Assembly (NCBI GenBank): GCA_965218695.1
Contig: OZ244651.1
Location: 704,001 to 768,000, forward strand
Direction: 5' to 3'
DNA from: Nitrosopumilus sp.
Lineage (GTDB): Archaea > Thermoproteota > Nitrososphaeria > Nitrososphaerales > Nitrosopumilaceae
DNA length: 64,000 bases
A program made the translations under genes and the position numbers. The notes under the pieces are model-generated. The model saw nothing but the letters and a program-made list of their open reading frames with translations, did not search any database and was not told the DNA's origin. This document shows, piece after piece, positions 4,286 to 60,463 of the stretch (the stretch's first letter is position 1; every line of letters begins with the position of its first letter).

Positions 4286-5387
4286 TAGTGAAAAGTGAAA
4301 GTTCGTTCCAAGTTCAGCACCTCAGACCGAAAACTATGTAGATCAGCCGGTCGCCTAACGCGGCATGATCAAAGTAACACGGGAAGAACTCGAAGTAGCA
4401 TACAAAAAAGAAAAGGACCTCAGGGTGGGAGCCAGAATGCTTGCAGTACACATGGTACATTTTCGTAAAATGAGCATAGATGATGCGGCCGTCAATCTTC
4501 TGCGATGTCCCAGGTGGGTACGCAACTGGCTGGAACGCTTCGAGAATGGAGGTCTACAAGGCCTCCGGGATCTTCCCAGATCCGGCAGGCCGCCCAAGAT
4601 TTCACCTGAAGCAATGGACGGCATACTGGACAAGGTAGACCGGTTCAAGACCACTCCTGCCGAACTGCAACAGGTCATACACAGGGAGACGGGAACAAAG
4701 ATGCACAGGACGAACATCAGGAAAATCATGCAAAAATACGGTCTGTCCCCCAAGGGGTCGCAAAGGATCCACATCAACAGGGCCACCAAGGCAGCCGTAA
4801 AAAGCTGGCAATATCGCCTCAAAAAGAGAATTTCACGCCTAGAAAAAGACGGTTTTGTCCTGGCCGTGCAAGACGAGGCGTTCTTCATACACGACGTAAA
4901 ATCTGGCCGCAAGTATTGGTCCCCCGTGGGGGTGCCAATAACCGTGCCATACACTGGAAGCCACAAAAGAATTACCGCGTACGGTTCAATTACAATGGAT
5001 GGCAGGCAGTTCTTCAGGACTGCCAGCGGGTTTAACGCGCCCACTTTTGTTGCTTATCTCAAGGCCATGCAGAGGCATTTTGGGAAGGTTGCCGTCCTGG
5101 TGGACAGGGCGTCCCCGCACCGCGCAAAAGCCGTCCGGACGCTGCTGCGCGAGAACAAGAACATCAGGATCATATACCTGCCAAAAGGCTCACCGTATCT
5201 CAACGCCGTGGAAGAATGCTGGCACCAGGGAAAACGGAACCTGCTTGTTTCAGAATACTACAAAACCTTCTTGGACATGCACAGTGCCGTCTCCCAGTAC
5301 TATCGAACTGCGAGATTCAATCTGGATTTGATCAAATTCTTTAACAGAAAAGCCGAATTATTTTGCAAGAACTTTTGATCGCCACTA
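4286..5387 (+). mobile_element. IS630-family element
   Basis: Imperfect TIRs (TAGTG...AAAGTTC), TA duplication at 4284-85 and 5388-89, CTAG empty site. Confidence 0.92.
4365..5378 (+). CDS. IS630 transposase
   Basis: HTH-GRP N-terminus; QDE, VDRASPH and SPYLNAVE catalytic motifs. Confidence 0.93.
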   Translation: MIKVTREELEVAYKKEKDLRVGARMLAVHMVHFRKMSIDDAAVNLLRCPRWVRNWLERFENGGLQGLRDLPRSGRPPKISPEAMDGILDKVDRFKTTPAELQQVIHRETGTKMHRTNIRKIMQKYGLSPKGSQRIHINRATKAAVKSWQYRLKKRISRLEKDGFVLAVQDEAFFIHDVKSGRKYWSPVGVPITVPYTGSHKRITAYGSITMDGRQFFRTASGFNAPTFVAYLKAMQRHFGKVAVLVDRASPHRAKAVRTLLRENKNIRIIYLPKGSPYLNAVEECWHQGKRNLLVSEYYKTFLDMHSAVSQYYRTARFNLDLIKFFNRKAELFCKNF

Positions 5388-8109: not shown

Positions 8110-9210
8110 TACTGACACGCAAAAGTCTTTGAGCAAATGCCCTAGCCAACCGCAAAGTTTCTAGATCAGACTTTCTTTCATGGAGACATGGACGACTCCA
8201 AACTGGAAGAACTAAAAAAAGCGTGCAAAAAAGAAAAAGACCACAAGGTTCGGGCTAGGATGGTCACGGTACGCATGGTTCGCGTGTTCAACATGACCGT
8301 GGAGGAGACTGCCGACATCCAAGGACGGAGCCCAAACTGGGTCCGCAACTGGTTGAGCCGCTTCGATGACGGAGGCCTGCAAGGCCTCCGTGATCTTCCC
8401 AGATGCGGACGGCCCAGAAAGATCCCGCAAGACGTCATCGACGGAATAATTGCAAAGACGGCATGCCATAAAATCACGCCCTCGGAACTGCAACAGAACA
8501 TACACCATGACACGGGCGTAAAGCTTCACATCACGTACGTCAGGAAGATCATGCACCAGTACGGCCTGTCCCCGAAGGCACCACGGAAAGTCCATGTTAA
8601 CAGGGCCAACAAAAAGGCCGTGCAGAACTGGAAATACCGCTTCAACAAGCGCGTTTCACGCCTAGAAAAGGAGGGATTTACCACGGTAATGGAGGACGAG
8701 GCAATCTTCATACACGACGTGATAGTCGGCCGTAAATATTGGTCCCTGGTGGGCCATCCCATAAGCGTGCCGTACACCGGCAGCCACAAGAGGATCGCAG
8801 CGTACGGCTCGATCGCAAAAGACGGCAGGCAGTTTTTCCGGACGTACGAGAAATTTGACGGACCCACGTTTGTCAGATACCTCAAGGATCTGCACCGGCA
8901 TTTTGGCAAGGTGGTAGTGACGGCAGACCGGGCCCCGCAGCACCGCTCAAAACTGGTAAAGGAATTTCTGCGCAGCAACAGGGATGTCAAGATGATCTAT
9001 CTGCCAAAGGGCTCGCCGTACCTCAACGCGATGGAGGAATGCTGGCACCAAGGAAAGCGCGTCCTGCTCGTCTCGGAATATTACCGGACATTTCAGGACA
9101 TGCACCGGGCAGTTTCGTTGTATTATCGAACCGCCAGGTTCAAGCTTGACATCCTCAAATTTACCAGCCGAAAATATGAGGCATTGTGCACAAACTTTTG
9201 ATCGTCAGTA
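8110..9210 (+). mobile_element. IS630-family element
   Basis: TIRs TACTGAC...CAAAAGT, TA duplication at 8108-09 and 9211-12, CTAG empty site. Confidence 0.92.
8188..9201 (+). CDS. IS630 transposase
   Basis: EDE, ADRAPQH and SPYLNAME motifs; paralog of 4365-5378. Confidence 0.93.
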   Translation: MDDSKLEELKKACKKEKDHKVRARMVTVRMVRVFNMTVEETADIQGRSPNWVRNWLSRFDDGGLQGLRDLPRCGRPRKIPQDVIDGIIAKTACHKITPSELQQNIHHDTGVKLHITYVRKIMHQYGLSPKAPRKVHVNRANKKAVQNWKYRFNKRVSRLEKEGFTTVMEDEAIFIHDVIVGRKYWSLVGHPISVPYTGSHKRIAAYGSIAKDGRQFFRTYEKFDGPTFVRYLKDLHRHFGKVVVTADRAPQHRSKLVKEFLRSNRDVKMIYLPKGSPYLNAMEECWHQGKRVLLVSEYYRTFQDMHRAVSLYYRTARFKLDILKFTSRKYEALCTNF

Positions 9211-9836: not shown

Positions 9837-10522
9837 TCTTGGACATTCCCACCTTTTGTCAGACAGACACAATCCATTCCGGATACTGTTGTCTGGCCTG
9901 TTCCAAAGAATCCTGCCAAGTGCCCTGGACGGAACTGCTCTTCTTGCGGGTCAGCGCCATGAGCAGTGCGGACCTAGCGTGCAGTTTGCAGCGGTTCTAG
10001 GAGTGTGGTGCCTAATCTGCGGTGATCTGGTGCACGCCGAGTGCGACTGACCCGTTTGTAACTGATCATGGCATGCAGATGGTCAAAAGCCAGACACGCA
10101 TCGATTCTGCCTGCAAGGACACAGCAGGAGACACGCATCAGCAAAATGAAATGAAATAGAACAAAATCATGTGCCGCCTGCGGTCACGGCAATCTTTATA
10201 CCGTACGGTAATGTACGGTAAAATTATGGGCTTATATGCTAATCCCGATTTGATGGTAGCCGACCATCCCAAACTTGGTGAGTATGGATCAAGAAGCAAT
10301 TCCTGAAATGTGGCCGGCTACCAGCTGTGCTTTGCTCCCCAGAGAATTTATGCTTTCAGTAGTATGCCGATAGCGTTCTGATGGCGAATTAATGGATAAA
10401 TACCCCAAACTCCAAACCCTAATTGGTGAGTATGGGTACAAGGAGGCTAACTATAGATTTTGTCAAGTAAGGCAACTTTAACTGCCGCGATCAATACCAA
10501 AGGATGCAAAATCATCGACGAG

Positions 10523-11350
10523 ATGATGGCAGAGTCGGCTGCCTCAAGGGGGATCGGCCTGTTGAGGAAACTTTCCGGAGGCCCGTGCCTCTGCAGTGCG
10601 GCGACTGCGATAAATGACGAGGTTGCAGGCGAGACACTGTGCGGGGTCTGCGGGGTCGTATTGCATGAGAGGGAGGCGCGTATGGTGTGGGATGGAATGG
10701 GAGGTTGGCACGATGTACGGCGCGCTACCGGGCGAAGCGGAAGGAGCATTACTGAATTTGTAACTACCCAGAGGATGGTCAGCGGCGCAACCGATGTCCG
10801 GCGGGATGCCCTGATGCGAACGATAATACCCATGCTGGAGCACGTGTCTGCCTCTGCAGTAATAAAAAACGAGGCAGAGTCGCTGGTAAGACGCATGACA
10901 TCAGACGGGTTTGCCAAAGGCAGGCACCGACTGACATTGTGCGCAGGGACGGTTCTGGCGGCATGCCGCGTGCACGGCCGCATGATAAGGCGCGAGGATC
11001 TGGCAATGCTCACGGGCACCAGTTTCAAGGGGGTGAGTCGGATTTCAAGGGGCATAATGGAGCGATACGGCCTGAAACCGCTCTCCATAGAGGACAGGAC
11101 AAGGCGCGTACTGTCCCGGATGTGTATCGATGTCGGCGCTCCCGGTCTGCTGCGCCCGGCGCTTGACACGTATGATGCCATGCTGCTTGCAGGGCATGCC
11201 TCGGGCAAGAGCCCGTATGTAGTGGCAGCGTACGTGCTCCGCCTCCACACGAGGCGCATAATGTCAGAAGAAAAGTTTGCAGAGAGGGTGGGAGTGCCGC
11301 ACCAAAGCATGCAGAGATATGTTGGGGGATTGATGCCCAATGCCTGCTAG
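10523..11350 (+). CDS. tfb: Divergent transcription initiation factor IIB (TFB)
   Basis: Zn ribbon (CLC...GETLCGVCG), two cyclin repeats (KGR...AAC; GKSP..VAA) and a C-terminal HTH. Start codon uncertain. Confidence 0.85.
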   Translation: MMAESAASRGIGLLRKLSGGPCLCSAATAINDEVAGETLCGVCGVVLHEREARMVWDGMGGWHDVRRATGRSGRSITEFVTTQRMVSGATDVRRDALMRTIIPMLEHVSASAVIKNEAESLVRRMTSDGFAKGRHRLTLCAGTVLAACRVHGRMIRREDLAMLTGTSFKGVSRISRGIMERYGLKPLSIEDRTRRVLSRMCIDVGAPGLLRPALDTYDAMLLAGHASGKSPYVVAAYVLRLHTRRIMSEEKFAERVGVPHQSMQRYVGGLMPNAC

Positions 11351-11578
11351 GTTTTGCGGCGATTTTGCCGGCGGATGTAAAGGATGCAGGCAAGCAGGAG
11401 AATAGACGCCCGTGCAGTTTCGTGTTTTGTGCCATGAGGAAAAGACACCACATATGCGCGCGCGATATGCGGGAGGAAACCAGAACAGTCTGATGGAATG
11501 TTTAGTAATCGGATTGGAGTGGCATGCCATGTCTGATGCACGATATAAATATTTAAGATAGCCAATCATGGAATTGAC

Positions 11579-11839
11579 ATGGGAAAAGTAACCATAATAA
11601 CTGAATCCTTGTTGGCGTGGTGCGACAACTGCGAGGCAGAATTCACTCCCAGGATAGTGCGCAAGATCCACACCTGCCCAAGATGCAGAACGGCTGTGCT
11701 TGGCGCCGAAGACGTGCCGCTTCGAGGCCCGGGCGTACACAAGGTGATTAAAAAGACGATCAAAAAGGCCGACGGGGCCAGCTCCGTGATCAGCAAAAAG
11801 CCTGCACCCAAGCGGGCCAAAAAACCCGCCTCCAAATAG
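11579..11839 (+). CDS. Small Zn-ribbon protein with Lys/Ala/Pro-rich tail
   Basis: CDNC...CPRC; TTTAAG 27 nt upstream; T-tract downstream; paralog at 12115. Confidence 0.8.
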   Translation: MGKVTIITESLLAWCDNCEAEFTPRIVRKIHTCPRCRTAVLGAEDVPLRGPGVHKVIKKTIKKADGASSVISKKPAPKRAKKPASK

Positions 11840-12114: not shown

Positions 12115-12309
12115 ATGGGAAAGGTAACCATAACCACAGAATCGGTTCTGGCGCACTGCGATGCATGCGGAAAGGACTTTACGCCCAGGATAGCCCGCAG
12201 GATCCACACCTGTCCAAACTGCCGGACCGCCGTTACCGGGGCAGAAGACGTCCCGCTTCGCGGCAGCGGGGTTGACAGGGTGATTGGCAGAAAGGTAGAG
12301 ACTGCGTAG
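12115..12309 (+). CDS. Small Zn-ribbon protein (paralog of 11579)
   Basis: CDAC...CPNC; TTTAAA 27 nt upstream. Confidence 0.8.
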   Translation: MGKVTITTESVLAHCDACGKDFTPRIARRIHTCPNCRTAVTGAEDVPLRGSGVDRVIGRKVETA

Positions 12310-12563: not shown

Positions 12564-12575
12564 CCCCCTTTATAT
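12564..12575 (+). promoter_or_regulatory. C-rich BRE/TATA motif CCCCCTTTATAT
   Basis: 28 nt upstream of ATG 12597. Confidence 0.7.
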
Positions 12576-13315: not shown

Positions 13316-13978
13316 TCACTTGGATGTGGCCTTTGCAGCGCATACCGTATCGTCTGATCTTGCCTCTGCCAGATAGTCTGATCTTTTGCTTGTCTGGTTG
13401 CCGAATTCCTGCGTGGCGCTCCAGACGTGCGATTCAAACTCGGCAAGGCTTTGGGGTAGGGGGTCCTCCTTCCATTCCCCGTCTTCTGCCCGAATGCGCA
13501 TGGAGAACTCGGCTTCTTGGGTTCCGCTGTTTTGTGCCTCCACCACGTAGTATGCGTGACCAGAACCGATCTCAAACACGTCAAAGCGCAGTATCTGGCA
13601 TGACGACTCCCTCGTAAGCGAGTCTGCCAGCCCGCCGCCAAAAGTGTATGCGATTGCAGCGCCGGTTATGGAGATGCCGACTAGCAGCATGACGCCGGTG
13701 ATCTCCGAGACCATCCTGACACGCCTGCCGCGGCGGGGCGGGTTCAGAAAGCACGGGCTGCGCCTGATCAGCCTGCCATAATAGTACAGGTCAAGGGTGT
13801 AAAGCCTGCCGTCTGGCGTGTTCTTCACCGAGACAAGCCTCAGCACTTGATTATTGACCCAGATAGAGTCGTCAGGTCCAAGTTCCCGCACGAGTTCTGC
13901 GAGCCTTTCGGGCCTGAAGCCGAGGTGGCCGCAGAGTCGGAGAAAGTGTTCGTGCCGCTTGTTTTTTTGGTTCATCAT
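13316..13978 (-). CDS. Type IV pilin-like protein with an 88-aa N-terminal extension (alternative start ATG 13714)
   Basis: RRGRRVRM-VSEITGVMLLVGISITGAAIAY pilin helix and AQNSG motif; ATGA overlap with the virB4 stop. Confidence 0.7.
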   Translation of the reverse strand: MMNQKNKRHEHFLRLCGHLGFRPERLAELVRELGPDDSIWVNNQVLRLVSVKNTPDGRLYTLDLYYYGRLIRRSPCFLNPPRRGRRVRMVSEITGVMLLVGISITGAAIAYTFGGGLADSLTRESSCQILRFDVFEIGSGHAYYVVEAQNSGTQEAEFSMRIRAEDGEWKEDPLPQSLAEFESHVWSATQEFGNQTSKRSDYLAEARSDDTVCAAKATSK

Positions 13979-15483
13979 TCCACCGCGGTGTTGAAATACG
14001 TCTCAGTCTCTTCTTTTGTCGCCTCGAACTTTACCTTGACCCGGTGTTTTTCAGTTATTATCAGTCCCTGACCCTTGGCAAACCTCATCAGGCGTTCGGT
14101 CTCCTCGTCTGTGAGATTCATTATGTTTTGGGCCGACCTTGCCGCGTCCTCTTCGAGCCTCATCAGAATCTTGGTTCCCATGTTGTCTATCATCTTGCCC
14201 TCTGCGCCCTTTTCCTGCGCGATGTCATCGACCCTTTGCGAGATGAAGACGAACTTTACGTTCAGTTTCCTGCCCATGCGGACGATCTGTTCTATGTACG
14301 CCATGGCGCCGGGCATCTTTGTGAGTAGCCAGCCCTCGTCGACTACGATTATCTTCTGGCGGGACTCGGGCATCTCTATGACCCTCTTCCATATCTTGTT
14401 CAGGACCAGCAGCAGTATCAGGACTTCATGCGGCTTGCCGGTGGCGCCGCTCAGCGATATTATTGTGCGGTCTGTAATCTGGGACTGCCCCTGCATGATC
14501 TTTGCCAGCGGACCCTCCACGAGGTGCTGCAGGTATTTTTTGGAATGCTCGCTTACCTGGTCGTACAAGTCATGCACGGACTTTACCTTGTCGGCAAACC
14601 TGAAGAACTCGTTGGATACTGCCTTGTCCTTGTCTTCTGCCTGCGTGACACCGGCAAGTATGGATGCAGCGTCTGCGGGATCCAGGATCTTGAACGGGTC
14701 GATGCCCAGCTTCTCATCGCCTGTAATCATCATGCCGTCAAGGCCGTAGTACCGGCGGTGCCGGTAGTACTCGTTCATCGGATCCAGCACGAATACTGCG
14801 GGGCCCTCTTCTGTCTCGTCCTCGTCTAGCAGCCTCTGGATGAGCCGTTTGACAAATATCTTTGCCGTAAACGACTTGCCCGAGCCAGACGTGCCTATTA
14901 TGGCGACGTTTCCGTTGGTGCGGCGGACGATGTCGTATATTGCAGGACCGTGCGAGTCCATGTTGTACCCCAGCAGCACGCCGTTTGGCATCTCTATCAT
15001 CTCTGCGGAGACAAACGGGTACACTATGCTCATGAATGACTGGTCTACTGTTATGTAGTGGACCCACCTGCCATGGTACAGGCTTCCCTGGCGGCTCATC
15101 GTGGCATCGAACTTGCCTCCCGTGATGCGCGTGTGCCTGAAGAATTCCTTTGTGTTTGCGTTTAGTTCCTTGAGGGTCTTGCCGTAGAGCATCACAGTCA
15201 TGCCAAACCGGTACATCTTGCCGACGCCGTTGTTTAGCATGTCCTCGACGGACTCTGCCTTGGCGTACTCGTCGGCTGCCCTCCTGTCTGTCTGGGAGCG
15301 CTTAAACAGCATCGAGCGCTTTTGCCTCAACAGGTTCAGCGACTGCTCCCTCTCCAGCGGATCCACCCACACGTCAATCTGGTTGCATGCAGAAAACACG
15401 CCGTGCACCCACGCCCACTGGAGTTGCGAGGGAACGTCGTAGAGTACCATGCACCTGACAAACCCCCCAGAATACTCCATGTG

Positions 15484-16819
15484 CAGTAATCCCAGATGTG
15501 CTCACGGAGCCACGGGATCTGGCGGTGGCTCGGGCTGAATCGTAATATTCCGATAGATTGCTATTAGCGTGACAATTTTCATATACAGCTGCGTCACCGG
15601 AAGGACTCCGTCACGCAGCTTCAGAAAGCTGGCCAGCTGCGCGTTTACCAGCACCCACGCATTGAATAGCATCAGCGAGTACAGAAAGCAGAAAAGCCGG
15701 GCAGGCCTACTGCTGCCGAACGATTTCGCCCTGGCATTCTCTACCAGTCTGTAGCATGTCTCGATGGTCCACCTTTTGGAATATTCCTCTACATCCATCC
15801 ACGGGGCATTGGTGGCAAACGCAATGTATCGATCTTCCGGCGCACCTGCCTTCTTGTCCCCGTTCTTCGCCCCCTCACTTTCCTTCCTTACTCTCTTCTT
15901 CTCTGCTATGATCATGTGGTACTGAACCGTTGCCTTGTCAGAATTCGTCATGTCGGATTTTGAGATGGGGCCGAGCGTTTTGGCCACGAACTTGCGCAGC
16001 GAGTCTTTCACCCTACTGGTTCTGGTGCACGGCATCAGGTACTCAAGGCTAAGACGCTCAATCTCGGATATTGAGTTCACTGAAAAGAAGCCCCTGTCAA
16101 CCAGGATCAGTCCCAGCCTGGATCCGACGGCGGAGACGTTTTCTAGGCACGAATTGAGGATTTCACGCAGGGATTCGTGCACGGATGAGGACTTGTCCAC
16201 GTATAGGGCCGCAAGGATAAGCCGCGATTTGGAGTTGACGCACTGCGCCGTGATGTACGCCTCGAATCTGTTGGTGCCGCTCTTGCGCTCTCCGCCTCTC
16301 AGGTCAGAGCCAAGTTTCTTGCTGTGGCACGGTATCAGGTGCATGTCGATGGCCACATCAAGCACATCAGGCAGCCTGCCAAACAGGTAAAGCTCATCCA
16401 GCTGTGCCCTTACCGCCTGGTTAAAAGTCTCAAGCGCCTTACCCTCGTCCGTCTTGGACAGGATATCGCGAAACCACTCGTCGCTTGGAGAATGACGTGA
16501 ATATCTTGGATTCTCGATGGACTGCGCCGTGATTTCTCTCATGGCGAAGCTGCATCCGCCGACCGAAGTGTCAAGCATCGCGGCATGCAGCATGCCGACG
16601 TTAAAGTCGCTTGCGCCATATGTCGCGTTGTACCTTTTGGAGACCTCGGCGGACGGCACGATGCTTTCTCTCAGCACCTTCTCAACAGATTCATATATTT
16701 TGCCATTGTTCATCATATCGCGTCTCAGGCGATCTTTTTGGTGGTACATAAGGATCGTCTGGGCGTGCCCCCATTGATCTGTTTGCATCAGGTGCTAGAT
16801 GGCACATCTGGGATTACTG
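15484..16819 (-). mobile_element. ISH3-like (IS4 superfamily) element
   Basis: Perfect 18-bp TIR CAGTAATCCCAGATGTGC; 6-bp direct repeat CATGTG. Confidence 0.92.
15502..16788 (-). CDS. ISH3-like DDE transposase
   Basis: VAIDMH, LVDRGF and YSKRWTIETCYR motifs; start uncertain. Confidence 0.88.
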   Translation of the reverse strand: MQTDQWGHAQTILMYHQKDRLRRDMMNNGKIYESVEKVLRESIVPSAEVSKRYNATYGASDFNVGMLHAAMLDTSVGGCSFAMREITAQSIENPRYSRHSPSDEWFRDILSKTDEGKALETFNQAVRAQLDELYLFGRLPDVLDVAIDMHLIPCHSKKLGSDLRGGERKSGTNRFEAYITAQCVNSKSRLILAALYVDKSSSVHESLREILNSCLENVSAVGSRLGLILVDRGFFSVNSISEIERLSLEYLMPCTRTSRVKDSLRKFVAKTLGPISKSDMTNSDKATVQYHMIIAEKKRVRKESEGAKNGDKKAGAPEDRYIAFATNAPWMDVEEYSKRWTIETCYRLVENARAKSFGSSRPARLFCFLYSLMLFNAWVLVNAQLASFLKLRDGVLPVTQLYMKIVTLIAIYRNITIQPEPPPDPVAP

Positions 16820-17166: not shown

Positions 17167-17179
17167 TTAAAAAGGGGGG
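17167..17179 (-). promoter_or_regulatory. C-rich BRE/TATA motif CCCCCCTTTTTAA (virB4)
   Basis: 27 nt upstream of GTG 17146. Confidence 0.7.
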
Positions 17180-17580: not shown

Positions 17581-18894
17581 TTAATTGTTTGAAACGGCGC
17601 TGCCGGGGACGTTTGCCTCTTCCCAGTTTATTACCGGCCCCAGCGTGCTACCTGAAGGAGGTCCTTTCTTCATCTGGTTCCACAGGAGGTCCAGGTTTAC
17701 GAGTCCGGTTATTATGTTAAATTCCCTGTTAAAGTCGCCAATCTTTCCCTTGTATGGCGCGGTAAGCCGGCCGTACCGCTTCAGCCTGCCGATGGAGTGC
17801 TCCACCTTTACCCTGGCCGAGTTGACGGCGTGGTTGTGCTCCTTTTCCTCCTTTGTAAAGCGCTTGTGGTTCTTGGTCTTCTTGTGCGGCTGCAGGGTGT
17901 TTGTGCCGGGCAGATCCTTTGCGATTCCCTTGTAGCCGCGGTCAGTAAGGGTGTGGATCCTGTCCTCTTCGGGGGTGTCCTCGTCGCACATGCGGTCCCA
18001 CCATTTTCCAAACGGCAGCGGGCTCTCCCTGAGCAGCGTAATGTCGTGGACGGATCCCACGGTGCTGCCGGATATGGCAACTATCACCCCGTTTTCATTT
18101 ATGCAGACTGTGGTGTTGAGCGTGAATTTCTTCTTCTTGCCCGAATACATCATGCTCCTCATCTGTTTTTCGTCCGGCCTCTGTATGGGGCAGTGCGTGC
18201 CGTCGATCATCATGATGCCCCCGTCAGGCCCGGAAATTATTTTTTTGAGATCCTCTTTTGTCTCCGTGCCTGCTATCTCCTTTGATATGTTGGCAGCAGT
18301 GGGCAGCGCCGCCTCGAGTACCGCGTCCATGACGTCGATGTACCTGGACACGGTCGCCTGGTCTATTCCAAAGAATGCCGCAAGCGCGCCCTGCGTGGGG
18401 TTGCCCTTTTTGTACATCAGTGACATGAGTAGCGCGTGCCTTGGGTACAGCTTGCAGCGGTTCCCGGGATCCGACGCCCTCGTCTCGTCGTTCCTGAAGA
18501 GCGGGGATTTGCCGCTTTGTCTTATCCATGCCTCGGCCCTGTCAAGTATGTACTGGAATTGCCCCCTGCCCTTCAGCGTCGCGTCATGAAGCTTCTTCCC
18601 GACGCCGATGACGTCGTCAAACACCTCCACGCGGTGCAGCAGGGCGGGCTCCCCTGCGGCTCCGGACTCGGAGCCGTCCCGCGTGCTCCACAGGCTTTGC
18701 TCGTGCTTGGCGGCTGCCTCCAAGCGCTTGATGTCAGCGTCCTGGCGCTTGATGTCAGCGTCCTGGCGCTTGATGTCAGCGTCCTGGCGCTTGATCATGT
18801 ATCTGAGAGCCTTGTTCTCTTTTTGCAGGTCACTTGTTTCCTGATTCGACAACAGTATGAACCGGCATATTCTGGTTTTAATTGGATGGATCAT
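17581..18894 (-). CDS. IS5/ISL2-like transposase
   Basis: IDGTHCPIQRP, GSVHD, TDRGY and RVKVEHSIGRLK motifs. Confidence 0.92.
   Translation of the reverse strand: MIHPIKTRICRFILLSNQETSDLQKENKALRYMIKRQDADIKRQDADIKRQDADIKRLEAAAKHEQSLWSTRDGSESGAAGEPALLHRVEVFDDVIGVGKKLHDATLKGRGQFQYILDRAEAWIRQSGKSPLFRNDETRASDPGNRCKLYPRHALLMSLMYKKGNPTQGALAAFFGIDQATVSRYIDVMDAVLEAALPTAANISKEIAGTETKEDLKKIISGPDGGIMMIDGTHCPIQRPDEKQMRSMMYSGKKKKFTLNTTVCINENGVIVAISGSTVGSVHDITLLRESPLPFGKWWDRMCDEDTPEEDRIHTLTDRGYKGIAKDLPGTNTLQPHKKTKNHKRFTKEEKEHNHAVNSARVKVEHSIGRLKRYGRLTAPYKGKIGDFNREFNIITGLVNLDLLWNQMKKGPPSGSTLGPVINWEEANVPGSAVSNN
18724..18795 (-). repeat. 21-bp tandem repeat x3.4 (IKRQDAD heptads)
   Basis: ATCAAGCGCCAGGACGCTGAC repeated; same array at 20921-20992 in copy B. 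Confidence 0.95.
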
Positions 18895-25210: not shown

Positions 25211-25223
25211 CCCCCTTTTAAAA
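25211..25223 (+). promoter_or_regulatory. C-rich BRE/TATA motif CCCCCTTTTAAAA
   Basis: 27 nt upstream of GTG 25243. Confidence 0.72.
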
Positions 25224-25242: not shown

Positions 25243-26763
25243 GTGAAGGAGAAGATCTTCAGCTCAAACTTTGCAATCACCAAACTCAAGCCGGCAGACA
25301 CTGATGCCAGGATACTCGAAGAGTATGCAGTCGGGCCGGCAAGGGTAAGCATAACGTCTGACGGTGTCTACAACGTCGTGCTGCCAAAGATCTCCGAGGG
25401 GGCAGAAAGACTCCTCCTCCGCCACATGGACGGCATATACGAAAAATTCTCCGGCGCGACCGACGAGGACCACACGGCCGTCATAGACAGGTACATAGAC
25501 GACGCCGAGATGGACGGGGACGACTTCAGGGTGTGGCAGAGGGAGCGCGAGACTATACGGTACTACCTGCATGCAGAACTTGACGGCTTCCGCAAGATAG
25601 ACGTGCTGATGAACGATCAGGAGATAGAGGACATAATATGCACCGGGTACGGCAAGGCAGTCGCCATAATCCACAAGGGGTTCTCGAACATGCGGATGCT
25701 CAAGACCAACATACGCTTTGGCACGGTGGAGGACGTAAACGAGTTCATCCAGATAATAGCGACCAGGTTCGGCAAGCCGCCGACGTTTGCCGCACCCATA
25801 ACGTACTGCTCCACGCCGGAGAACCACAGGATCACGTTTGTCGGAAAGGACAGGATATCCCCCGACGGCCCCTCCTTTGCGATAAGAAAGTTCCCCGAGT
25901 CCCCGCTGGTGGTTACCCACCTGATTGAAGACGGCGTAATCAGCCTCGAGTTTGCAGCATACGTCTGGATGCTAATAGACGCCACGCCGTTCCTGCTGAT
26001 AGTGGGCGAGACCGGCAGCGGCAAGACCACGCTGATAAACGCCCTCATGTGCCTCTCCGACCCGCGCATGCACGTCATGGTGATTGAGGATACCCGGGAG
26101 CTGAGGATGCCGCACTACTGGGCAGAGTACAACATAGCAGCAGAGGGCGGCGGCGGTCGCTCCAGGGAGGGCGATTCTGTCCACAAAGGCACGAGCGTGA
26201 TGGACCTTGTCCGCATGACTCTCCGGAAAAAACCGCATTTCGTGCTGATAGGGGAGGTTCGGGGAGAGGAGACGCGGGAGATGTTCCAGGGAGCAGTATC
26301 CGGACACGGGGCCATGACCAGCTTTCACGCAGCCGGGGTGCCAGAGACGTTTGCCCGGCTGAGATCCGAGCCGATCAACATCACCGACAACCAGCTGATG
26401 AACCTCTGGGGAGTGCTCCATGTCACCAAGCTAAAGACGCAGACCGGAACGACTGCCAGACGCATGCTGACTTATGCAGAACTGTACGTGGATAAAGACG
26501 GCGGGATACGCCACCAGACCGTCTTCGGGTACGACCACAAGACAGACACGATCATGCCGCGCAGCAACGCCGAGATCATCGGCAACAGCAGGAGGATCCA
26601 GTACGCTGCCAACAGGTTCGGGGTGCCAGACATCGCAGCCGAGCTCGACCGGCGCAAAAGACTGCTGCAGGAGTGCATCGATGCCGGCGCCTACACGGTG
26701 CAGAAGGTCTTTGGCATCACGTCTCGATGCTACGACCATGCCAGCCCCTCAGACCGCCTCTGA
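25243..26763 (+). CDS. Type II/IV secretion ATPase (TadA/VirB11/FlaI family)
   Basis: AIRKF, GETGSGKTT, IEDTREL, IGEVRG and SGH...TSFHA motifs. Confidence 0.93.
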   Translation: MKEKIFSSNFAITKLKPADTDARILEEYAVGPARVSITSDGVYNVVLPKISEGAERLLLRHMDGIYEKFSGATDEDHTAVIDRYIDDAEMDGDDFRVWQRERETIRYYLHAELDGFRKIDVLMNDQEIEDIICTGYGKAVAIIHKGFSNMRMLKTNIRFGTVEDVNEFIQIIATRFGKPPTFAAPITYCSTPENHRITFVGKDRISPDGPSFAIRKFPESPLVVTHLIEDGVISLEFAAYVWMLIDATPFLLIVGETGSGKTTLINALMCLSDPRMHVMVIEDTRELRMPHYWAEYNIAAEGGGGRSREGDSVHKGTSVMDLVRMTLRKKPHFVLIGEVRGEETREMFQGAVSGHGAMTSFHAAGVPETFARLRSEPINITDNQLMNLWGVLHVTKLKTQTGTTARRMLTYAELYVDKDGGIRHQTVFGYDHKTDTIMPRSNAEIIGNSRRIQYAANRFGVPDIAAELDRRKRLLQECIDAGAYTVQKVFGITSRCYDHASPSDRL

Positions 26764-28044: not shown

Positions 28045-28215
28045 ATGGAACCCAAAACGTTTGCCAGAATGTTGTTGCTCGTGGTGGCGGTGTTGGTCAT
28101 ATTGTCGGTAGCGTGGCAGGTCATTGCGCCTGCCGCGTGTAACGACCCGCCTGAGAGCCTGAAGCATGACTGGTTCGTGTTCCTGTGCGACCAGTACCGT
28201 CCTTCAACCGGGTAA
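28045..28215 (+). CDS. Small membrane-anchored/secreted protein with a Cys pair
   Basis: MEPKTFARMLLLVVAVLVILSVAW hydrophobic N-terminus. Confidence 0.55.
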   Translation: MEPKTFARMLLLVVAVLVILSVAWQVIAPAACNDPPESLKHDWFVFLCDQYRPSTG

Positions 28216-28218
28216 AAT

Positions 28219-28229
28219 CCCCTTTTATT
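28219..28229 (+). promoter_or_regulatory. C-rich BRE/TATA motif CCCCTTTTATT
   Basis: 26 nt upstream of GTG 28249. Confidence 0.7.
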
Positions 28230-37504: not shown

Positions 37505-39448
37505 CTAAACCAGTCCGCCGATCATCTCCTTGATGTGTGGCAGTGCCACGCACAGCGCGGTTCCAAAGGTTGCCATCATGCAGACGTGCACGGTGTGCTT
37601 CATTGTAAAGTACGTTATCTTGGAGACAAGGAGCCCGATGAGTATGGTGCATTCGACTATGAGGAGGCTTGACTGTTTGGCCGTCTCTTCTGTCTGCTCC
37701 GGGGTGGGAAAGTTTATCGGCATTGCCTGGACGGCCTCCAGGTCGCCTGTGACGTTGCCGGTCATCTCCGAGGTTACAACCAGCATCGCCACCATGATTA
37801 TCGGTATGACGTATCCCATGACGACTGACCCGCGCAGCGACGCCATCATCTCACGCCTGGACTCGACATAGTCCTTGACAAAGTTTGTAAACGTCTGCAG
37901 GGAATGGGTGTCGCCGCCGCCGCTCTCCTGCACCTGCGAGAGTACAAAGAAGAGTACTCTTGAGAGCCATGACGTGGTGCGGGCCGACTCTGCAGCGGCT
38001 GCCAATGACTTGCCAAACATCATCTGCCTGGATATGTCGCGCAGTACGGGGCCGAGCGCGTCCCTTTGGCCGTTGCCTCTGGCCCGAGCCGTGACGGCCT
38101 CGTGTATCTCCATGCCCTCCAGCCTGCCGTCGGTGACAAACTGCGCAAACGCCGGCAGCGCGTCATCCATCCTTGATGTGCGAGAGAAGCGACTCCTTGC
38201 CATGAATGCGTTCGTGCCTGCCCATACTGCCGTCGCTGCCCCCAGGACTCCCCAGAGCGGCACGCCTGCAATCATGGCAACCGGAATCGACAGGAATGCC
38301 AGCACAAGCGGTGGGCGGTACAGCGGGACGGCATTGTGCGTCCGCGGCTGCTTGCCGTCGACTGCCACCAGCAGCACTATGATGATTATCGGGAGAAGTA
38401 TCATCACCATTATCGTCATGGACATGGCGTCTTTGCCGGTGGCCACAAACGTGGTAGCTATGGCCAGTATCGGCATGACTGCCATTACCAGCAGCACCAT
38501 CTGGGCGATTCCGTTTGCCTCGGCAGTATAGGACTTTACGCTGTTTCGCATAACGCGGAACGCAGATTCGGTGGCTGCAATCATCGTGTTTGCAGTGTTT
38601 GTGCCGCTCGTGTTGTATGCAGCCGAATAGTTCGTGACTATCTCCCTAAAGTCGTTGTTTGGGTGGGTCTCTGCCACCTTGCGCAGCGCCGTGGTGTGCG
38701 ACATCGCCATGTACCTGACGTTGCGCTGGAATATCAGGGCGTCTTGCCGCAGTATGGGAAAGAGCGCGGTACCGGACCTTGATATCCTTTCTATGAACTC
38801 GTAAAATGACACGCCGACCTTCTCCATTATGCTGGCGCACGCGATGAATACGGGCAGCTCGTGGCCTATTGCGGACTTGCGCTGCGACTTGGCGTTCTTC
38901 AGCTGGAGCAACCCGCTGAACAGTATGGCAACTGGAACGGCGCACAGCCCCAGAAAGCCGGGGTGGAAGAGCATGGCAAGTGCGGCCGCTGCTGCGACTG
39001 ACGGCGGCGCGGACAGCATGGCGTACATTATGCCGTGCCTGGCAATCCTCATGGAGTCGTTGGCGTGTCCGGACTCGAATATCGCCGTGCGCGTCTTTCC
39101 GACCAGGTACTCTTCCAGTCTGCGCACGGGGGCAATTGACATGAAGGGCTTTAGCATCGTCATGGCGCGGTCCGCCGTCACGGGTTGTGCCTCAAGGAGC
39201 GCGCCGAAGCGTCCGTGCCTGACTGCGATGCCAGAACCCGCCGCCTGTGGCTCTTCTTCCCCCTTGTGCGTCCTTGAGAACAACGGCCTGATCCTCTCAC
39301 GAAAGATGGCTGCAATGTCGGTCTGCGTGAGGACCATGAGCGTGATGAATACTGGTGTGGAGATGGCAAACAAGCCGGACTGGCCGAGTGCCATGAATGC
39401 GCCCATGATGCCGAGCATTCCAAGCAGCGAGGTTACGGGGAGGCGCAT
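37505..39448 (-). CDS. Type II secretion F / TadC / FlaJ-like pilus platform protein (two repeats)
   Basis: Multi-TM; ELPVF and ALPAF...QESGG modules. ATG 39448 is supported by promoter spacing. Confidence 0.85.
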   Translation of the reverse strand: MRLPVTSLLGMLGIMGAFMALGQSGLFAISTPVFITLMVLTQTDIAAIFRERIRPLFSRTHKGEEEPQAAGSGIAVRHGRFGALLEAQPVTADRAMTMLKPFMSIAPVRRLEEYLVGKTRTAIFESGHANDSMRIARHGIMYAMLSAPPSVAAAAALAMLFHPGFLGLCAVPVAILFSGLLQLKNAKSQRKSAIGHELPVFIACASIMEKVGVSFYEFIERISRSGTALFPILRQDALIFQRNVRYMAMSHTTALRKVAETHPNNDFREIVTNYSAAYNTSGTNTANTMIAATESAFRVMRNSVKSYTAEANGIAQMVLLVMAVMPILAIATTFVATGKDAMSMTIMVMILLPIIIIVLLVAVDGKQPRTHNAVPLYRPPLVLAFLSIPVAMIAGVPLWGVLGAATAVWAGTNAFMARSRFSRTSRMDDALPAFAQFVTDGRLEGMEIHEAVTARARGNGQRDALGPVLRDISRQMMFGKSLAAAAESARTTSWLSRVLFFVLSQVQESGGGDTHSLQTFTNFVKDYVESRREMMASLRGSVVMGYVIPIIMVAMLVVTSEMTGNVTGDLEAVQAMPINFPTPEQTEETAKQSSLLIVECTILIGLLVSKITYFTMKHTVHVCMMATFGTALCVALPHIKEMIGGLV

Positions 39449-39468
39449 AAATGCGAGGCTTGACGTGC

Positions 39469-39481
39469 TTAAAAACGGGGG
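39469..39481 (-). promoter_or_regulatory. C-rich BRE/TATA motif CCCCCGTTTTTAA (tadC-like)
   Basis: 27 nt upstream of ATG 39448; back-to-back with the pilin promoter. Confidence 0.7.
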
Positions 39482-39498
39482 TTCCGCGTGAAAGGCCG

Positions 39499-39507
39499 CC
39501 CTTATAA
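39499..39507 (+). promoter_or_regulatory. C-rich BRE/TATA motif CCCTTATAA (pilin)
   Basis: 27 nt upstream of ATG 39529. Confidence 0.7.
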
Positions 39508-39528
39508 GCAAACCATTTTTGCAGTTTA

Positions 39529-40152
39529 ATGAAGTCCACAATAACAAAGTCCACAACAACGAAGAGGGGGAGGAGGAGGGCCGTATCGGCAATCATCGGA
39601 ATCATGCTCGGCCTCGGCCTGACGGCAGTGGCTGCAGGCGGACTGTACGTGATGACCAGCGACCTTTCTGACAGCGCGGTGTCCATAAATTCCGTGGAGG
39701 TGCAAAATGTCAGGGCATACAATACAGGAAACGAGGCATACGTGTCACTGAGCGTCAAGAATACGGGCACGGATGCTGCAACAGACTTGAGTGCAGTTGT
39801 GCTGCTTGCATGCAATGGCGAGGCCAGCGCAGAGGCCACGCTCACCGATGCTGCCCTCAAGGCAGCAACCACGGACTGTGTTGCAGCCCAGTATGCCAAT
39901 CCTCCGACGGCAGCCGTGAATCCGGGAACGCTAGTATCGATGCCCGTGGGTGCGACCATATCCAACTTGGCACCGGGTGAAACCTCCAGCGTGTCAGGAG
40001 GGGTGGCAATCACAGATGCTGCCAGTACGACCGAGCGGGACCCGGGAGAAAATATCGCGTTTGCGGTAGGAAAAGAGTACCTCATAGAGATATCAGGCAC
40101 GACATCGTCAGGCGAGCCTATCGTCCAGACTGCCACAGTCCGCGTACGATAA
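39529..40152 (+). CDS. Archaeal type IV pilin (probable major pilin)
   Basis: Class III signal RRRA/VSAIIGIML, VKNTG motif, own promoter and terminator. Confidence 0.88.
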   Translation: MKSTITKSTTTKRGRRRAVSAIIGIMLGLGLTAVAAGGLYVMTSDLSDSAVSINSVEVQNVRAYNTGNEAYVSLSVKNTGTDAATDLSAVVLLACNGEASAEATLTDAALKAATTDCVAAQYANPPTAAVNPGTLVSMPVGATISNLAPGETSSVSGGVAITDAASTTERDPGENIAFAVGKEYLIEISGTTSSGEPIVQTATVRVR

Positions 40153-40612: not shown

Positions 40613-40622
40613 CCCCTTAAAT
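40613..40622 (+). promoter_or_regulatory. C-rich BRE/TATA motif CCCCTTAAAT
   Basis: 26 nt upstream of ATG 40643. Confidence 0.7.
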
Positions 40623-47889: not shown

Positions 47890-47898
47890 CCCTTTTAA
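47890..47898 (+). promoter_or_regulatory. C-rich BRE/TATA motif CCCTTTTAA
   Basis: 26 nt upstream of ATG 47919. Confidence 0.7.
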
Positions 47899-54295: not shown

Positions 54296-54306
54296 CCCCT
54301 TTTAAT
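54296..54306 (+). promoter_or_regulatory. C-rich BRE/TATA motif CCCCTTTTAAT
   Basis: 26 nt upstream of ATG 54326. Confidence 0.7.
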
Positions 54307-58537: not shown

Positions 58538-60244
58538 CTACCTGATCTCCGGCCGCCTGCCAATCCTAGACAGAATCCAGTCTATCTGCCTCTGCATGGC
58601 CTCTATTTTTTTGTCATACGTGCCAAGCAGCGCGTCATCCCTGTAGGAGATGGCCTGCCTGCGTGCAAGTTCCTCCATCAGGCTCTTTATCTCGGCGTCC
58701 ATCTCGCCGAGCCTGGCCTCTGAGCCAACGGGACTCTCGCCGCCCAGCATGCTCTCCGTCTTGCTTATGACGTTGATCTTGCCGGATGCCTTTGCGTACT
58801 CCCGGCGCAGCGTATCGGGATACATGGCAGGCTTTTCATAGGAGTCCCTTGGCTTGTGCCCGAGAATAAAGTCGGCCACATACTGCGCACACCCGCAGTC
58901 CATGAGCGTGGTCTTTAACAGATCACGAAGCTCGTGCGCGCGTATCTTGTACATTCTGTTTCCAATCTTCTTCTGCAGCCCGGCATTGACTGCCAGTTTG
59001 CCCATCTCCATCGATATCCAGATGCTTTTGAGGGGCCGGCCGGACCTGACAAACAGCGGACCGTCGGGATCAAAACCCCCACACTCCCCGATGCGCCAGT
59101 CCAGATAATTCTGTATGGCAGTAATGGCATCAGCATCCAGAAAGGTTATGAACCGCACCCCGGTCTTCATCCTGACGAGCCGGATTGGGACAGGGCACCG
59201 GGCCGTCTCCCATGCGGCGTGGTTGTTTGTCCCGAAGTATTTGGCAATCTGGGAATACGCCTCAAAGTTGAATCGGTCTGCAAGCGTGGACGAGTCCAGT
59301 CCGGCCTGAAACTTTACCAGCAGGACTGCCGTCAGCAGTGCAGACGGCTTTCCCTCAGTCAGCATCCGATGCCACTCGTCCAGCGTCAGTCCGCCCTCGT
59401 CTCTCATCTCCTGCGTGTCATGATCCCGCGGGTCGTACTTCATTCCAACAGGGGACTCGTTTTTTGCAAAATATGACATGATTGCAGAAAACGTGGTACT
59501 CATGCTGCTGGGACCGACATCTCTGTGCATCGGGTCTATGAGGTATGTCCTGATGATCCTTGTGACGTCCTTTTTGGATATGGCAGAATCATCAAACATG
59601 GTCAGGAGCTGCTCAACGTTTTCGAACCGGGTCTCAAGGATTCGCTCCTCCAGGGTGTGGTTCCCAACCCGGACGTTCTGCTTGATCGTAAAGGACCTGG
59701 CAGTCAGCCACCTGTCAAAACTGGCAAGACGGCGCACGTACATGGAGCGGGTGGTGTTGCTGCTGTTGTATGATGCAGACGCGTTCCTGTATCGGCTTCC
59801 ACGCAGCTGCCTTTCCCAGTATTGCACGCTTTGGAGGCAGTTTATGTGGGTTCTCTTTGGGGACATGGTCTTTTTGATTATGCCCCGTTTCTGCGCAATG
59901 CTGAGCGCCTGGTAGTGGTAGTTGATGAACGTCGCCTTTGAGCATGATTTGGGCCTGTCAGGCATGTCCCTTTGGATTATCTCGTCGGCAGAGAACCGCG
60001 TCCCGGTGTCTCCAAACCTGTAGACTATCTGTGTGAACCTTTTGGGCATCCTGTCCAGTCTGTCCGGCGTGGGATGCTGGCATACCTCGTATTGTGTGCC
60101 CCATTGTGGAGTCCCGATGGGCTGCTGCTGTTGCCCGTCTCCCGGGATTGGGGATTGCGGCGTGCGGGGTGTTGTCGGTTGCTCCATGATTGCCTTGCGC
60201 AGTTTCTGCGTTCCTTCGTGATGGGCCGTTTTGGCCTTTTTCAT
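58538..60244 (-). CDS. Tyrosine recombinase/integrase with a long N-terminal extension
   Basis: RMKTG, AHELR, ILGH and SY motifs; GLD where GxR is expected; start uncertain. Confidence 0.85.
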   Translation of the reverse strand: MKKAKTAHHEGTQKLRKAIMEQPTTPRTPQSPIPGDGQQQQPIGTPQWGTQYEVCQHPTPDRLDRMPKRFTQIVYRFGDTGTRFSADEIIQRDMPDRPKSCSKATFINYHYQALSIAQKRGIIKKTMSPKRTHINCLQSVQYWERQLRGSRYRNASASYNSSNTTRSMYVRRLASFDRWLTARSFTIKQNVRVGNHTLEERILETRFENVEQLLTMFDDSAISKKDVTRIIRTYLIDPMHRDVGPSSMSTTFSAIMSYFAKNESPVGMKYDPRDHDTQEMRDEGGLTLDEWHRMLTEGKPSALLTAVLLVKFQAGLDSSTLADRFNFEAYSQIAKYFGTNNHAAWETARCPVPIRLVRMKTGVRFITFLDADAITAIQNYLDWRIGECGGFDPDGPLFVRSGRPLKSIWISMEMGKLAVNAGLQKKIGNRMYKIRAHELRDLLKTTLMDCGCAQYVADFILGHKPRDSYEKPAMYPDTLRREYAKASGKINVISKTESMLGGESPVGSEARLGEMDAEIKSLMEELARRQAISYRDDALLGTYDKKIEAMQRQIDWILSRIGRRPEIR

Positions 60245-60463
60245 TGTTCTTCCTCTCCATTTCCCTATATGAGGTCGTACTATGGAGCGCCATCGGCATG
60301 CGGCGGCAGGCGGATGGCATTTCCAAGGGATCTGGCACGCCGCGATGCAGAAAGCGCCTGTCATGGCGTCGTCTGTCCGCTCCCGATACCAGCATCATGC
60401 AAGGGACGGGCAACTTTTGGAATAATTCGCTTTGGGACCAAGCAGCAGACAGATTTCGTAACT

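Follow-up and report, generated by a model that had tools for sequence, protein, structure and literature searches.

The 64,000-nucleotide stretch analyzed here (hereafter, the window) derives from Nitrosopumilus sp. (assembly GCA_965218695.1, contig OZ244651.1, positions 704,001 to 768,000), and it carries a gene for a TFB/TFIIB-like protein of 275 residues. Positions given without a contig name are those of the window. Our comparative analyses showed that, as judged from its sequence, this gene is intact and belongs to a separate lineage of short TFB/TFIIB-like proteins that are associated with mobile elements. On balance, we slightly favor the interpretation that its product would be an element-encoded initiation factor or modulator at TBP-bound promoters, a role suggested by the family and by the predicted fold: with its cyclin core docked onto TBP-TATA and RNA polymerase held by its zinc ribbon, the protein would use the changed C-terminal helix to contact the DNA just upstream of TATA differently from the host TFBs. 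The most plausible targets would be the leaderless conjugation and pilus genes of the element that have a run of C directly 5' of TATA (the C-run class), and we regard this assignment as tentative and rather doubtful.

Family, fold and conservation of the TFB-like protein

The plus-strand frame is open from 10460 to the TAG stop, with its earliest in-frame ATGs at 10523 and 10526 and an alternative TTG start at 10562, and the 275-residue form is already present in the protein collection. The product matched the Pfam TFIIB repeat PF00382 at repeat 1 (residues 104-156; E 1.2e-6, 28.9 bits, cut-off 23.6), and its match among PDB sequences was 1d3u_B, the P. woesei TFB core (6.7e-5). Pfam Zn_Ribbon_TF scored 17.5 bits, below its cut-off of 29, and NCBIfam NF001658, which describes full-length transcription initiation factor IIB, scored 27.2 bits, far below its cut-off of 384. 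An AlphaFold2 (AF2) model built from 29 sequences had a mean predicted local distance difference test (pLDDT) score of 83.5, with a ten-helix core at 94-98, ribbon strands at about 80-83 and two disordered stretches (residues 9-19 and 52-85). The best structural match of the core was again 1d3u_B, the TFB core in a complex with TBP, TATA and the B recognition element (BRE) (Z 17.4, root-mean-square deviation 3.2 A; VIA-align over model residues 85-274, 187 aligned residues). The next matches were TFIIB chains of pre-initiation complexes, and plain cyclins reached a Z of only about 12. The model thus has the two cyclin-like repeats that make up the core in the TFB/TFIIB family. A 297-codon open frame lies antisense to the gene (10447-11340, minus strand) and was taken as a coding-strand shadow, with no search aimed at it made; the forward frame is preferred because family and fold matches are only known for that frame.

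The protein is 19% identical to the canonical host TFB (C1:1077063-1077956) and departs from it in several places. The predicted zinc ribbon has C-L-C as its first knuckle (10586-10594) and C-G-V-C as its second (10640-10651); all four cysteines are invariant in an 11-row alignment (A3), and in a 29-row alignment (A2) C43 is invariant and C40 nearly so. The linker that follows is about 40 residues shorter than that of the host TFB, lacks both GPEWRxF and HDxGL in A3, and holds the clade motif [IV]T+[FY]VTTQR[IM]. At the C-terminal helix-turn-helix, predicted at pLDDT >90, residues 248-270 read SEEKFAERVGVPHQSMQRYVGGL and the host counterpart reads TQRDVAEAAGVTEVTIRNRYKGL; the host has DVAEAA-GVT-EVTIRNRYKGL at this place, and GVPHQSMQRY stands where canonical TFBs have a recognition helix of the form GV[ST]EVT[IV]RN. 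Other core features are kept, namely the G-R loop of repeat 1 (G-F-A-K-G-R-H, aligned to G-L-V-R-G-R-S in the host TFB) and the GK.P..AA motif of repeat 2 (SGKSPYVVAAYVL, aligned to AGKDPMGLAAAALY). A cysteine at or near the C-terminus occurs in seven of nine clade members and also in their sister pair (P0024 and P0033). The original prediction, made from the letters of the window, had called the gene a TFB paralog with a non-canonical recognition helix, a C-x-C first knuckle and no GPEWRAF-type B-reader. The family and fold matches agree with this, and alignment A3 places GPEWRSF in the host TFB and nothing comparable in the present protein.

A word-indexed search returned seven relatives (51-65% identity) among 1726 candidates, and an exhaustive profile search of 1.84 billion representatives returned 5 at E <= 1e-30, 27 at E <= 1e-10 and 136 at E <= 1e-3, with matches that extend end to end. 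The alignment of the top 29 delineates a short family of 250-280-residue proteins that open at or near M-x-C-x-C, followed by GE..C..CG. Their C-x-C knuckle is one residue shorter than the C-P-R-C of the host, and GPEWRxF is absent across the whole family. Outer members retain 'HDYGIGT', a remnant of 'HDMGLAT' in the host, and the clade of the present protein lacks even that. Most members have a canonical-like helix, GV[ST]xV[ST][ILV]RN[FY], whereas the clade of nine and the sister pair have G-V-P-x-x-[SHN]-[MLI]-x-R-[YFM], in which the residue after G-V may differ from P. With its length, M-x-C-x-C near the start, missing B-reader and two cyclin repeats, the present protein belongs to this short mobile-element lineage, which was defined in the present analysis from the profile search, alignment A2 and a tree. 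The C-x-C knuckle and the absent B-reader are common to the whole family and are therefore not lesions, and the comparison indicates that they, the absent B-linker and the changed helix-turn-helix are inherited traits rather than local damage.

A quick maximum-likelihood tree of 62 rows, from which fragment P0008 and proteins outside 180-360 residues were left out, recovered the clade of nine as monophyletic (Shimodaira-Hasegawa-like approximate likelihood ratio test, SH-aLRT, 99) on a long stem of 1.41, as sister to P0024 and P0033 (SH-aLRT 89); deep branches in this tree are weak. The clade falls outside a group (99) that includes all four canonical TFBs of the host together with the genome's two further short TFB-like genes. 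The terminal branch of the present protein is short (0.15 vs a median of 0.91). Mean pairwise identity within the clade was calculated from eight clade rows, leaving out P0007, the N-terminal half of which is garbled. It is highest in cyclin 2 (0.61; residues 189-243), followed by the zinc ribbon (0.51), cyclin 1 (0.47) and the helix-turn-helix (0.43; the recognition helix alone, 0.34), and lowest in the linker (0.27). Within the helix, G257, R265 and Y266 are invariant in another eight-row alignment, A1 (the more distant P0010 has F at 266), and residue 263 is always M, L or I within the clade. The retention of these residues argues that the helix is not decaying neutrally, as loss of its conservation among orthologs would have implied; what appears fixed is a scaffold and an arginine shifted by one position, not one new reading code.

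The clade is thinly spread. No true relative was found in the genome, viral or metagenome contig collections, the single match in the genome and metagenome contigs being 37 residues on a bacterial contig, and the plasmid and phage collections gave no tblastn match. A profile of the clade matched 4 of the 201 genomes searched from the order at E <= 1e-10 and 15 of the 401 from the family at E <= 1e-15 (both counts include the present genome); a close ortholog was absent from these genomes, the best non-self E being 1.5e-31. The distribution is thus patchy, as expected of mobile genes. The surroundings of distant relatives are mobile-element-like as well, with ParB, MT-A70, MCM, DNA methylase and nuclease genes. 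ParB adjoins these relatives in 2 of 14 loci inspected. Short-family members stand beside ParB-domain genes in genomes G187 (10148-11781 of locus L018) and G544 (617-2355 of locus L023); in G187 the two genes overlap, and the same element has MT-A70, NT5C and MCM genes. This adjacency agrees with the TFIIB-ParB coupling published for thaumarchaeal elements.

Predicted role, start codon and rival readings

Several observations weigh against a factor that initiates transcription from the element. A positive role is not assured, because the protein is missing the segment with which canonical TFBs select the start site and open the DNA. The positions aligned to V and R of 'EVTIR', which we take to be the base-contacting residues of TFIIB/TFB, differ among the nine orthologs (Q/L/N/K/Q/T/A/A/N and Q/R/N/Y/H/N/R/H/Y, respectively). 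The Q-R and V-T-x-R contact positions differ from those of canonical TFBs, as originally noted; the variable ones define no single new code, and their variability would fit either diversified specificity or weak base reading. In addition, the start codon is not the ancestral one, and the ATG found at the spacing of leaderless starts is out of frame. Finally, unlike most published thaumarchaeal integrative-conjugative elements (ICEs), the window gave no ParB_N match, the only two in the genome being at C1:2342278 and on contig C4.

The first of these points admits a decoy or repressor, which would bind TBP-TATA, and perhaps RNA polymerase through the ribbon, without opening the promoter, and would block the host TFB at selected promoters, thereby silencing the element or damping host genes. 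Such a function would be in keeping with the loss of about 40 residues that include the GPEWRxF and HDxGL stretch, with the pLDDT below 50 in this region and with the conservation of both the cyclin core and the ribbon. However, the entire short family lacks the B-reader and is nevertheless widespread on elements that need gene expression. Natural paralogs of the P. furiosus TFB2 type, which have a poor B-reader, still initiate, although less well, and this counts against a decoy too. The published view, in the available text of PMC5797428, also favors a positive change in promoter specificity. We therefore consider a decoy unlikely and retain the element-encoded initiation factor or modulator as the working interpretation.

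Upstream of the gene, the only TATA-like box is TTTAAC at 10477. Its description as host-type was partly right: the box is not of the C-run class and resembles some host tRNA promoters, e.g. 'cccaacactttaaacc', but it has C at -4; among host tRNA promoters, A occupies this position in 76% of the 25 in which a TATA could be recognized (41 tRNA genes examined). The 12-mer formed by this promoter was rejected as a shared motif of the element, as it is not enriched in the window (9 matches at <=2 mismatches vs 3.99 expected; 2 of 100 shuffles reach 9); its one-mismatch matches belong to a pair of copies of the same insertion sequence. Upstream of the gene, 15 bases also match a multi-copy repeat, a similarity that proved uninformative. 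As originally noted, an ATG at 10504 lies 27 nt downstream of the box and is out of frame; this spacing is within the 25-28 nt of the TATA-plus-start pairs of the genome, i.e., of leaderless starts. A start at 10523 would require a 5' end a few bases further downstream.

Comparison within the clade clarifies what has happened at the start. Six of the eight other members begin one to three residues before C-x-C (MKPCVC, MKCMC, MKCRC, MKCLC, MMQCLC and MKKSCLC), and P0005 begins after the knuckle. At the ancestral start place the present gene has GGA GGC CCG TGC, without an ATG, and its frame continues upstream. A frameshift in the gene body was rejected: the C-x-C frame aligns with the orthologs (PCLCSA-ATAINDE against PCVCDVEPTIINDE), and C-G-D-C of the 10504 frame has no homolog. 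The zinc-ribbon frame is thus the ancestral one, and the gene body is not frameshifted. Between the two options first proposed, a start at 10523 or a frameshift, translation from ATG 10523 is most likely, and the sequence comparison indicates an intact gene body with a remodelled start. The out-of-frame ATG may weaken expression of the gene. A Shine-Dalgarno-led start at TTG 10562 behind 'AAGGGGGATC' ('GGGGGAT') was also considered and is weak, such motifs being near background in this genome (67 of 1072 long open reading frames (ORFs) vs 45 of 1072 random sites).

The loss of the ancestral M-K-C-x-C start also bears on whether the gene is a relic, that is, whether the element is decaying and the gene is poorly or not expressed, its frame surviving by chance or because decay is recent, and its helix having changed without a present function. 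The out-of-frame ATG at the leaderless position and the presence of at least ten transposase genes in the window could be read in this way, and the internal ATG has no obvious help, because Shine-Dalgarno-like motifs are rare. Moreover, in a second, paralogous element of the same genome (see below), a 273-codon TFB-like frame (C1:553809-554630) adjoining a TBP gene (C1:552778-553362) has its own M-S-A-C-S-C start out of frame with the remainder. Against a relic, the 275 codons contain no stop, the end branch is short, and the VirB4-, FlaI- and TadC-like genes of the element are intact too; all residues invariant in A1 are present as well, although by construction, since the protein is row 1 of that alignment. 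A relic thus seems quite improbable. A slippage switch, in which ATG 10504 would be the true start and the G5 run a frameshift site, with expression through slippage or a G4 subpopulation, is very improbable: the leaderless spacing of this ATG and the restoration of frame by one G fewer would suit it, but five bases are a short run, an ATG or GTG arises by chance in a 4-nt window about once in eight, the orthologs lack an N-terminal extension, so that the fused 10504 form is not ancestral either, and the G5 run, present as originally noted, is found without an indel or variant in contigs of three public runs (one study, which may share DNA with the assembly; contigs rather than reads were compared, and contigs hide rare variants).

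Assembled contigs from two public runs are interrupted at 10390/10391 and 10468-10491, with depth about two- to three-fold higher on the gene side. No genome repeat accounts for these breaks, which could reflect either poor coverage or a variant whose upstream region differs.

C-run promoters and the surrounding element

The window contains 11 occurrences of the C-run box, CCCYTTWWA, at 9 distinct sites, compared with 2.01 +/- 1.65 in shuffles, none of 100 of which reached 11. Seven of the nine distinct sites are followed by an ATG or GTG 29-31 nt on that opens 87-1653 codons (Table 1). The whole genome holds 80 distinct sites, of which 26 belong to copies of a single repeat, and 20 of the 28 site-plus-start pairs are located within C1:520-760 kb, which is 9% of the genome. 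An independent rule was also applied (a TATA box with a start 25-28 nt on and at least 100 codons, the C-run being at least three C in the four bases before TATA), and the C-run was found at 14 of 44 TATA-plus-start sites in C1:480-768 kb, compared with 7 of 127 elsewhere, two of which precede TnpB-like genes. Among the host tRNA promoters with a recognizable TATA, 1 of 25 had a C-run. TATA boxes without a C-run precede the TFB-like gene itself (AAGGCAAC-TTTAAC), the zinc-ribbon gene at 12115 (an AT-rich box 27 nt before the ATG), the ArdC gene and a 271-codon gene. The element therefore has two promoter classes, as a cascade requires. A tRNA-Met gene within the mobile region (C1:637787-637892) has a GCCC-TTTTTATC box upstream, unlike other tRNA promoters.

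Searching the genome with the window proteins (tblastn) revealed a paralogous element at C1:524-551 kb that is largely syntenic with that of the window, and further pieces of it extend to about 660 kb. Relative to the window proteins, its products show identities of 78% (pilin-like), 75% (VirB4-like), 76% (FlaI-like), 84% (1653-codon gene) and 76% (TadC-like). By eye, in most of nine promoter pairs, the upstream similarity between the two elements begins at an A-rich stretch, C-run and TATA and reaches the start codon, and the DNA beyond is unrelated. Two further TFB-related frames were observed in this genome: a 691-codon ORF of the second element (C1:536456-538531) that ends in a single TFB-type cyclin repeat, and a 116-codon fragment of the same kind at C1:1718638-1718988.

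The assignment of these boxes to the TFB-like factor meets several objections. C-run boxes occur in the second element, which lacks an ortholog of the TFB-like gene, and they also stand in the 26-copy repeat and before two TnpB-like genes. Among FlaI-like homologs elsewhere in the family (27 of 29 loci taken, 26 with a TATA-like box), C likewise stands just before TATA in 18 of 26 upstream strings, as judged by eye. In genomes G531 and G256, homologous ICEs (VirB4-like proteins 43% identical, FlaI-like ones about 40%) show a G/C-rich box with C as its last base at 9 of 11 and 9 of 10 TATA-plus-start sites, respectively (at least three G/C in the four bases before TATA). Their TFB-like protein differs, however, having about 247 residues, a single cyclin, a C-x-H...C-x-C ribbon and no C-terminal helix-turn-helix; these TFB-derived genes lie near a pilin-like gene, in a place comparable to that of the present gene (L092:1261-2001 in G531 and L095:1267-2013 in G256). 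Furthermore, the motif was found by inspecting the window, which makes its enrichment there post hoc, and the second element, being a paralog, is no independent sample; the statistics are therefore not independent. The link between box and TFB is unproven, because similar boxes also occur in related elements whose TFB is of another type, and the box is a trait of the ICE family and of other mobile DNA in the genome, not of elements with this helix. The 26 identical repeat copies (e.g. at C1:31680, 37244 and 114470) hold CCCCTTATAT, 17 bases from one end, and look like an insertion sequence or a miniature element. In the promoters of the G187 element (locus L018, 38.6% G + C), no pattern was seen.

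Since the TFB-like gene and the small zinc-ribbon genes adjoining it have no C-run box, host factors could switch them on first. A two-tier program could then be envisaged, in which host TFBs read the ordinary promoter of the TFB gene, the factor redirects TBP and RNA polymerase to the C-run leaderless promoters, and the variable helix residues tune each element to a box of its own. We consider this program doubtful. Of the original proposal of altered specificity at the top of a cascade, what speaks for it is that genes of the element use the C-run class and the TFB-like gene itself lacks it; the proposal as a whole is not shown, given the similar boxes that accompany another TFB type, the 26-copy repeat and the TnpB-like genes.

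The genome has an archaeal amoA gene (E 3.4e-116), and mcrA was not found in it; thus, the host is an ammonia-oxidizing thaumarchaeon. It also has four TBP genes and about ten TFB-like loci. Together with the VirB4-, FlaI-, TadC- and pilin-like genes, this setting identifies the region, by its gene content, as a thaumarchaeal ICE with many insertion sequences, and the TFB-like gene lies within this integrated element. Further genes of the window include ArdC-like, PrgI-like and the 1653-codon genes. Among the insertion-sequence genes are two apparently identical IS66-type genes and two near-identical inverted DDE_Tnp_4 genes; a TnpB/Cas12f-like gene is present as well. Mobile DNA seems to span about 288 kb (C1:480-768 kb), which may explain the genome size of 2.63 Mb, above most listed congeners (1.3-2.8 Mb). 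The TFB-like gene is directly followed by a pair of small paralogous genes (11579-11839 and 12115-12309, plus strand) for CxxC...CxxC zinc-ribbon proteins that have a basic tail. One homolog lies in the second element of the genome, and the pair may be further early regulators. A 93-base 'tRNA-Gly'(gcc) called by ARAGORN at 28102-28194 was considered as an attachment site and is likely a false call, because it has no promoter and no repeat and is unlike the real tRNA-Gly(gcc) of the genome.

Table 1. Positions of the TFB-like gene, its parts, the C-run boxes and other features of the window.
Feature	Position	Strand	Basis or remark
TFB/TFIIB-like gene	10523..11350	+	275 residues from first in-frame ATG; stop TAG 11348-11350
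Candidate BRE/TATA of TFB-like gene, GGCAAC-TTTAAC (GGCAACTTTAAC), non-C-run class	10471..10482	+	sequence
Out-of-frame 37-codon ORF	10504..10617	+	ATG 27 nt after first T of TTTAAC; TGA 10615-10617
G5 run	10548..10552	+	one G fewer puts ATG 10504 in frame with TFB ORF
Zinc ribbon, residues 22-50, C22-x-C24...C40-x-x-C43	10586..10672	+	three predicted strands, 29-32, 37-40, 46-49 (AF2)
Linker replacing B-reader/B-linker, residues 51-88	10673..10786	+	alignment A3; pLDDT <50 at residues 52-85
First cyclin-like repeat, residues 89-181	10787..11065	+	Pfam match; AF2 helices, pLDDT 94-98
Second cyclin-like repeat, residues 189-270	11087..11332	+	sequence match, AF2, alignment A3, structural match
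C-terminal helix-turn-helix, residues 249-270, EEKFAERV-GVP-HQSMQRYVGGL	11267..11332	+	AF2 helices 249-256, 260-270
C-terminal cysteine, residue 275	11345..11347	+	alignments
C-run + TATA box	12566..12574	+	31 nt before ATG of 113 codons (membrane protein); conserved in paralogous element
C-run + TATA box	17168..17176	-	30 nt before GTG of 110 codons
C-run + TATA box	25212..25221	+	31 nt before GTG of FlaI-like ATPase gene (25243-26763)
C-run + TATA box	28219..28227	+	30 nt before GTG of 1653-codon gene
C-run + TATA box	40613..40621	+	30 nt before ATG 40643 (647 codons)
C-run + TATA box	47890..47898	+	29 nt before ATG 47919 (368 codons)
C-run + TATA box	54296..54305	+	30 nt before ATG of 87 codons
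VirB4-like conjugal transfer ATPase gene	13975..15480	-	Pfam AAA_10, TraG P-loop; NCBIfam VirB4-type E 2e-31 and weaker, all under cut-offs
FlaI-like ATPase gene	25243..26763	+	window protein annotation; GTG start
UpsF/TadC-like membrane platform gene	37505..39592	-	window protein annotation
UpsA-like pilin gene	39529..40152		window protein annotation
608-residue ORF	58538..60364		weak tyrosine-recombinase match
Insertion-sequence load	4365-5378, 8188-9201, 15502-16788, 17581-18894, 19190-20596		
Insertion-sequence load, continued	20822-22075, 22072-23478, 46686-47648, 57046-58236, 61938-62999		

Comparison with known systems

According to the accessible portions of two reports, every identified ICE of thaumarchaea has a gene for a TFIIB homologue, which in most cases immediately precedes ParB (Krupovic et al. 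2019, PMC6563490), and these homologues were proposed to alter promoter specificity (Abby et al. 2018, PMC5797428). The present gene shares with them the host group, the VirB4-, FlaI-, TadC-, pilin- and tyrosine-recombinase-like content of the element and the divergence of its TFIIB homologue. It differs in that no ParB follows it, a coupling that the accessible text of PMC6563490 gives for most elements. The C-x-C knuckle, the loss of B-reader and B-linker, the clade helix and the promoter class are not described in those portions of PMC6563490 and PMC5797428. Our literature search found no functional test of ICE TFIIB homologues and no such box; the supplements of PMC6563490 fell outside it and may list clade members. 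The kind of gene is thus already known, and the present one belongs to a rare branch with a changed DNA-reading helix. What appears to be new is the motif-level description (C-x-C as a family trait, the loss of the B-linker and a clade helix whose contact positions vary), together with the remodelled start and the C-run promoter class.

The two cyclin repeats and the C-terminal helix-turn-helix are shared with canonical archaeal TFB (PDB 1d3u and 1ais; the host TFB), and the predicted zinc ribbon corresponds in position to the canonical one. By contrast, the present protein has C-x-C in place of C-P-x-C, lacks about 40 residues of B-reader and B-linker, and has GVPHQSMQRYV in place of GVTEVTIRNRY. 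TFB3 of Sulfolobus is reportedly without the DNA-binding cyclin core and is said to work with TFB1; the present protein keeps both cyclin repeats and the helix-turn-helix and is therefore not of the TFB3 type. TFB3 is, however, also a shortened TFB paralog, which the available text of PMC6101591 ties to the induction of pili and DNA-exchange genes. TFIIB homologs of archaeal type IV pilus loci were assigned to arCOG01981 and arCOG05559 (Makarova et al. 2016, PMC4858521, in its accessible part). The present gene is similarly located beside FlaI, TadC and pilin genes, and its two-cyclin form fits arCOG01981 by the description given there only. The arCOG05559-like single-cyclin form is found in the related ICEs of G531 and G256 and not in the window.

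Taken together, the window offers a testable pair within the same element, namely a well-conserved short TFB with a changed helix and a class of leaderless promoters with C-run and TATA. If the two are linked, they would reveal the way in which mobile elements of archaea commandeer a transcription machinery of the eukaryote-like type and would provide a TFB able to work without a B-reader. If they are not, the C-run box would still be a useful marker of mobile-element promoters in ammonia oxidizers that are hard to grow. Bacterial phages and plasmids encode sigma factors through which a mobile element supplies the promoter-recognition subunit for the host polymerase, in an early-to-late cascade. 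The resemblance is an analogy only, and the protein families are unrelated; were the cascade true, it would constitute an archaeal counterpart of these sigma-factor cascades, built from a TFB without a B-reader.

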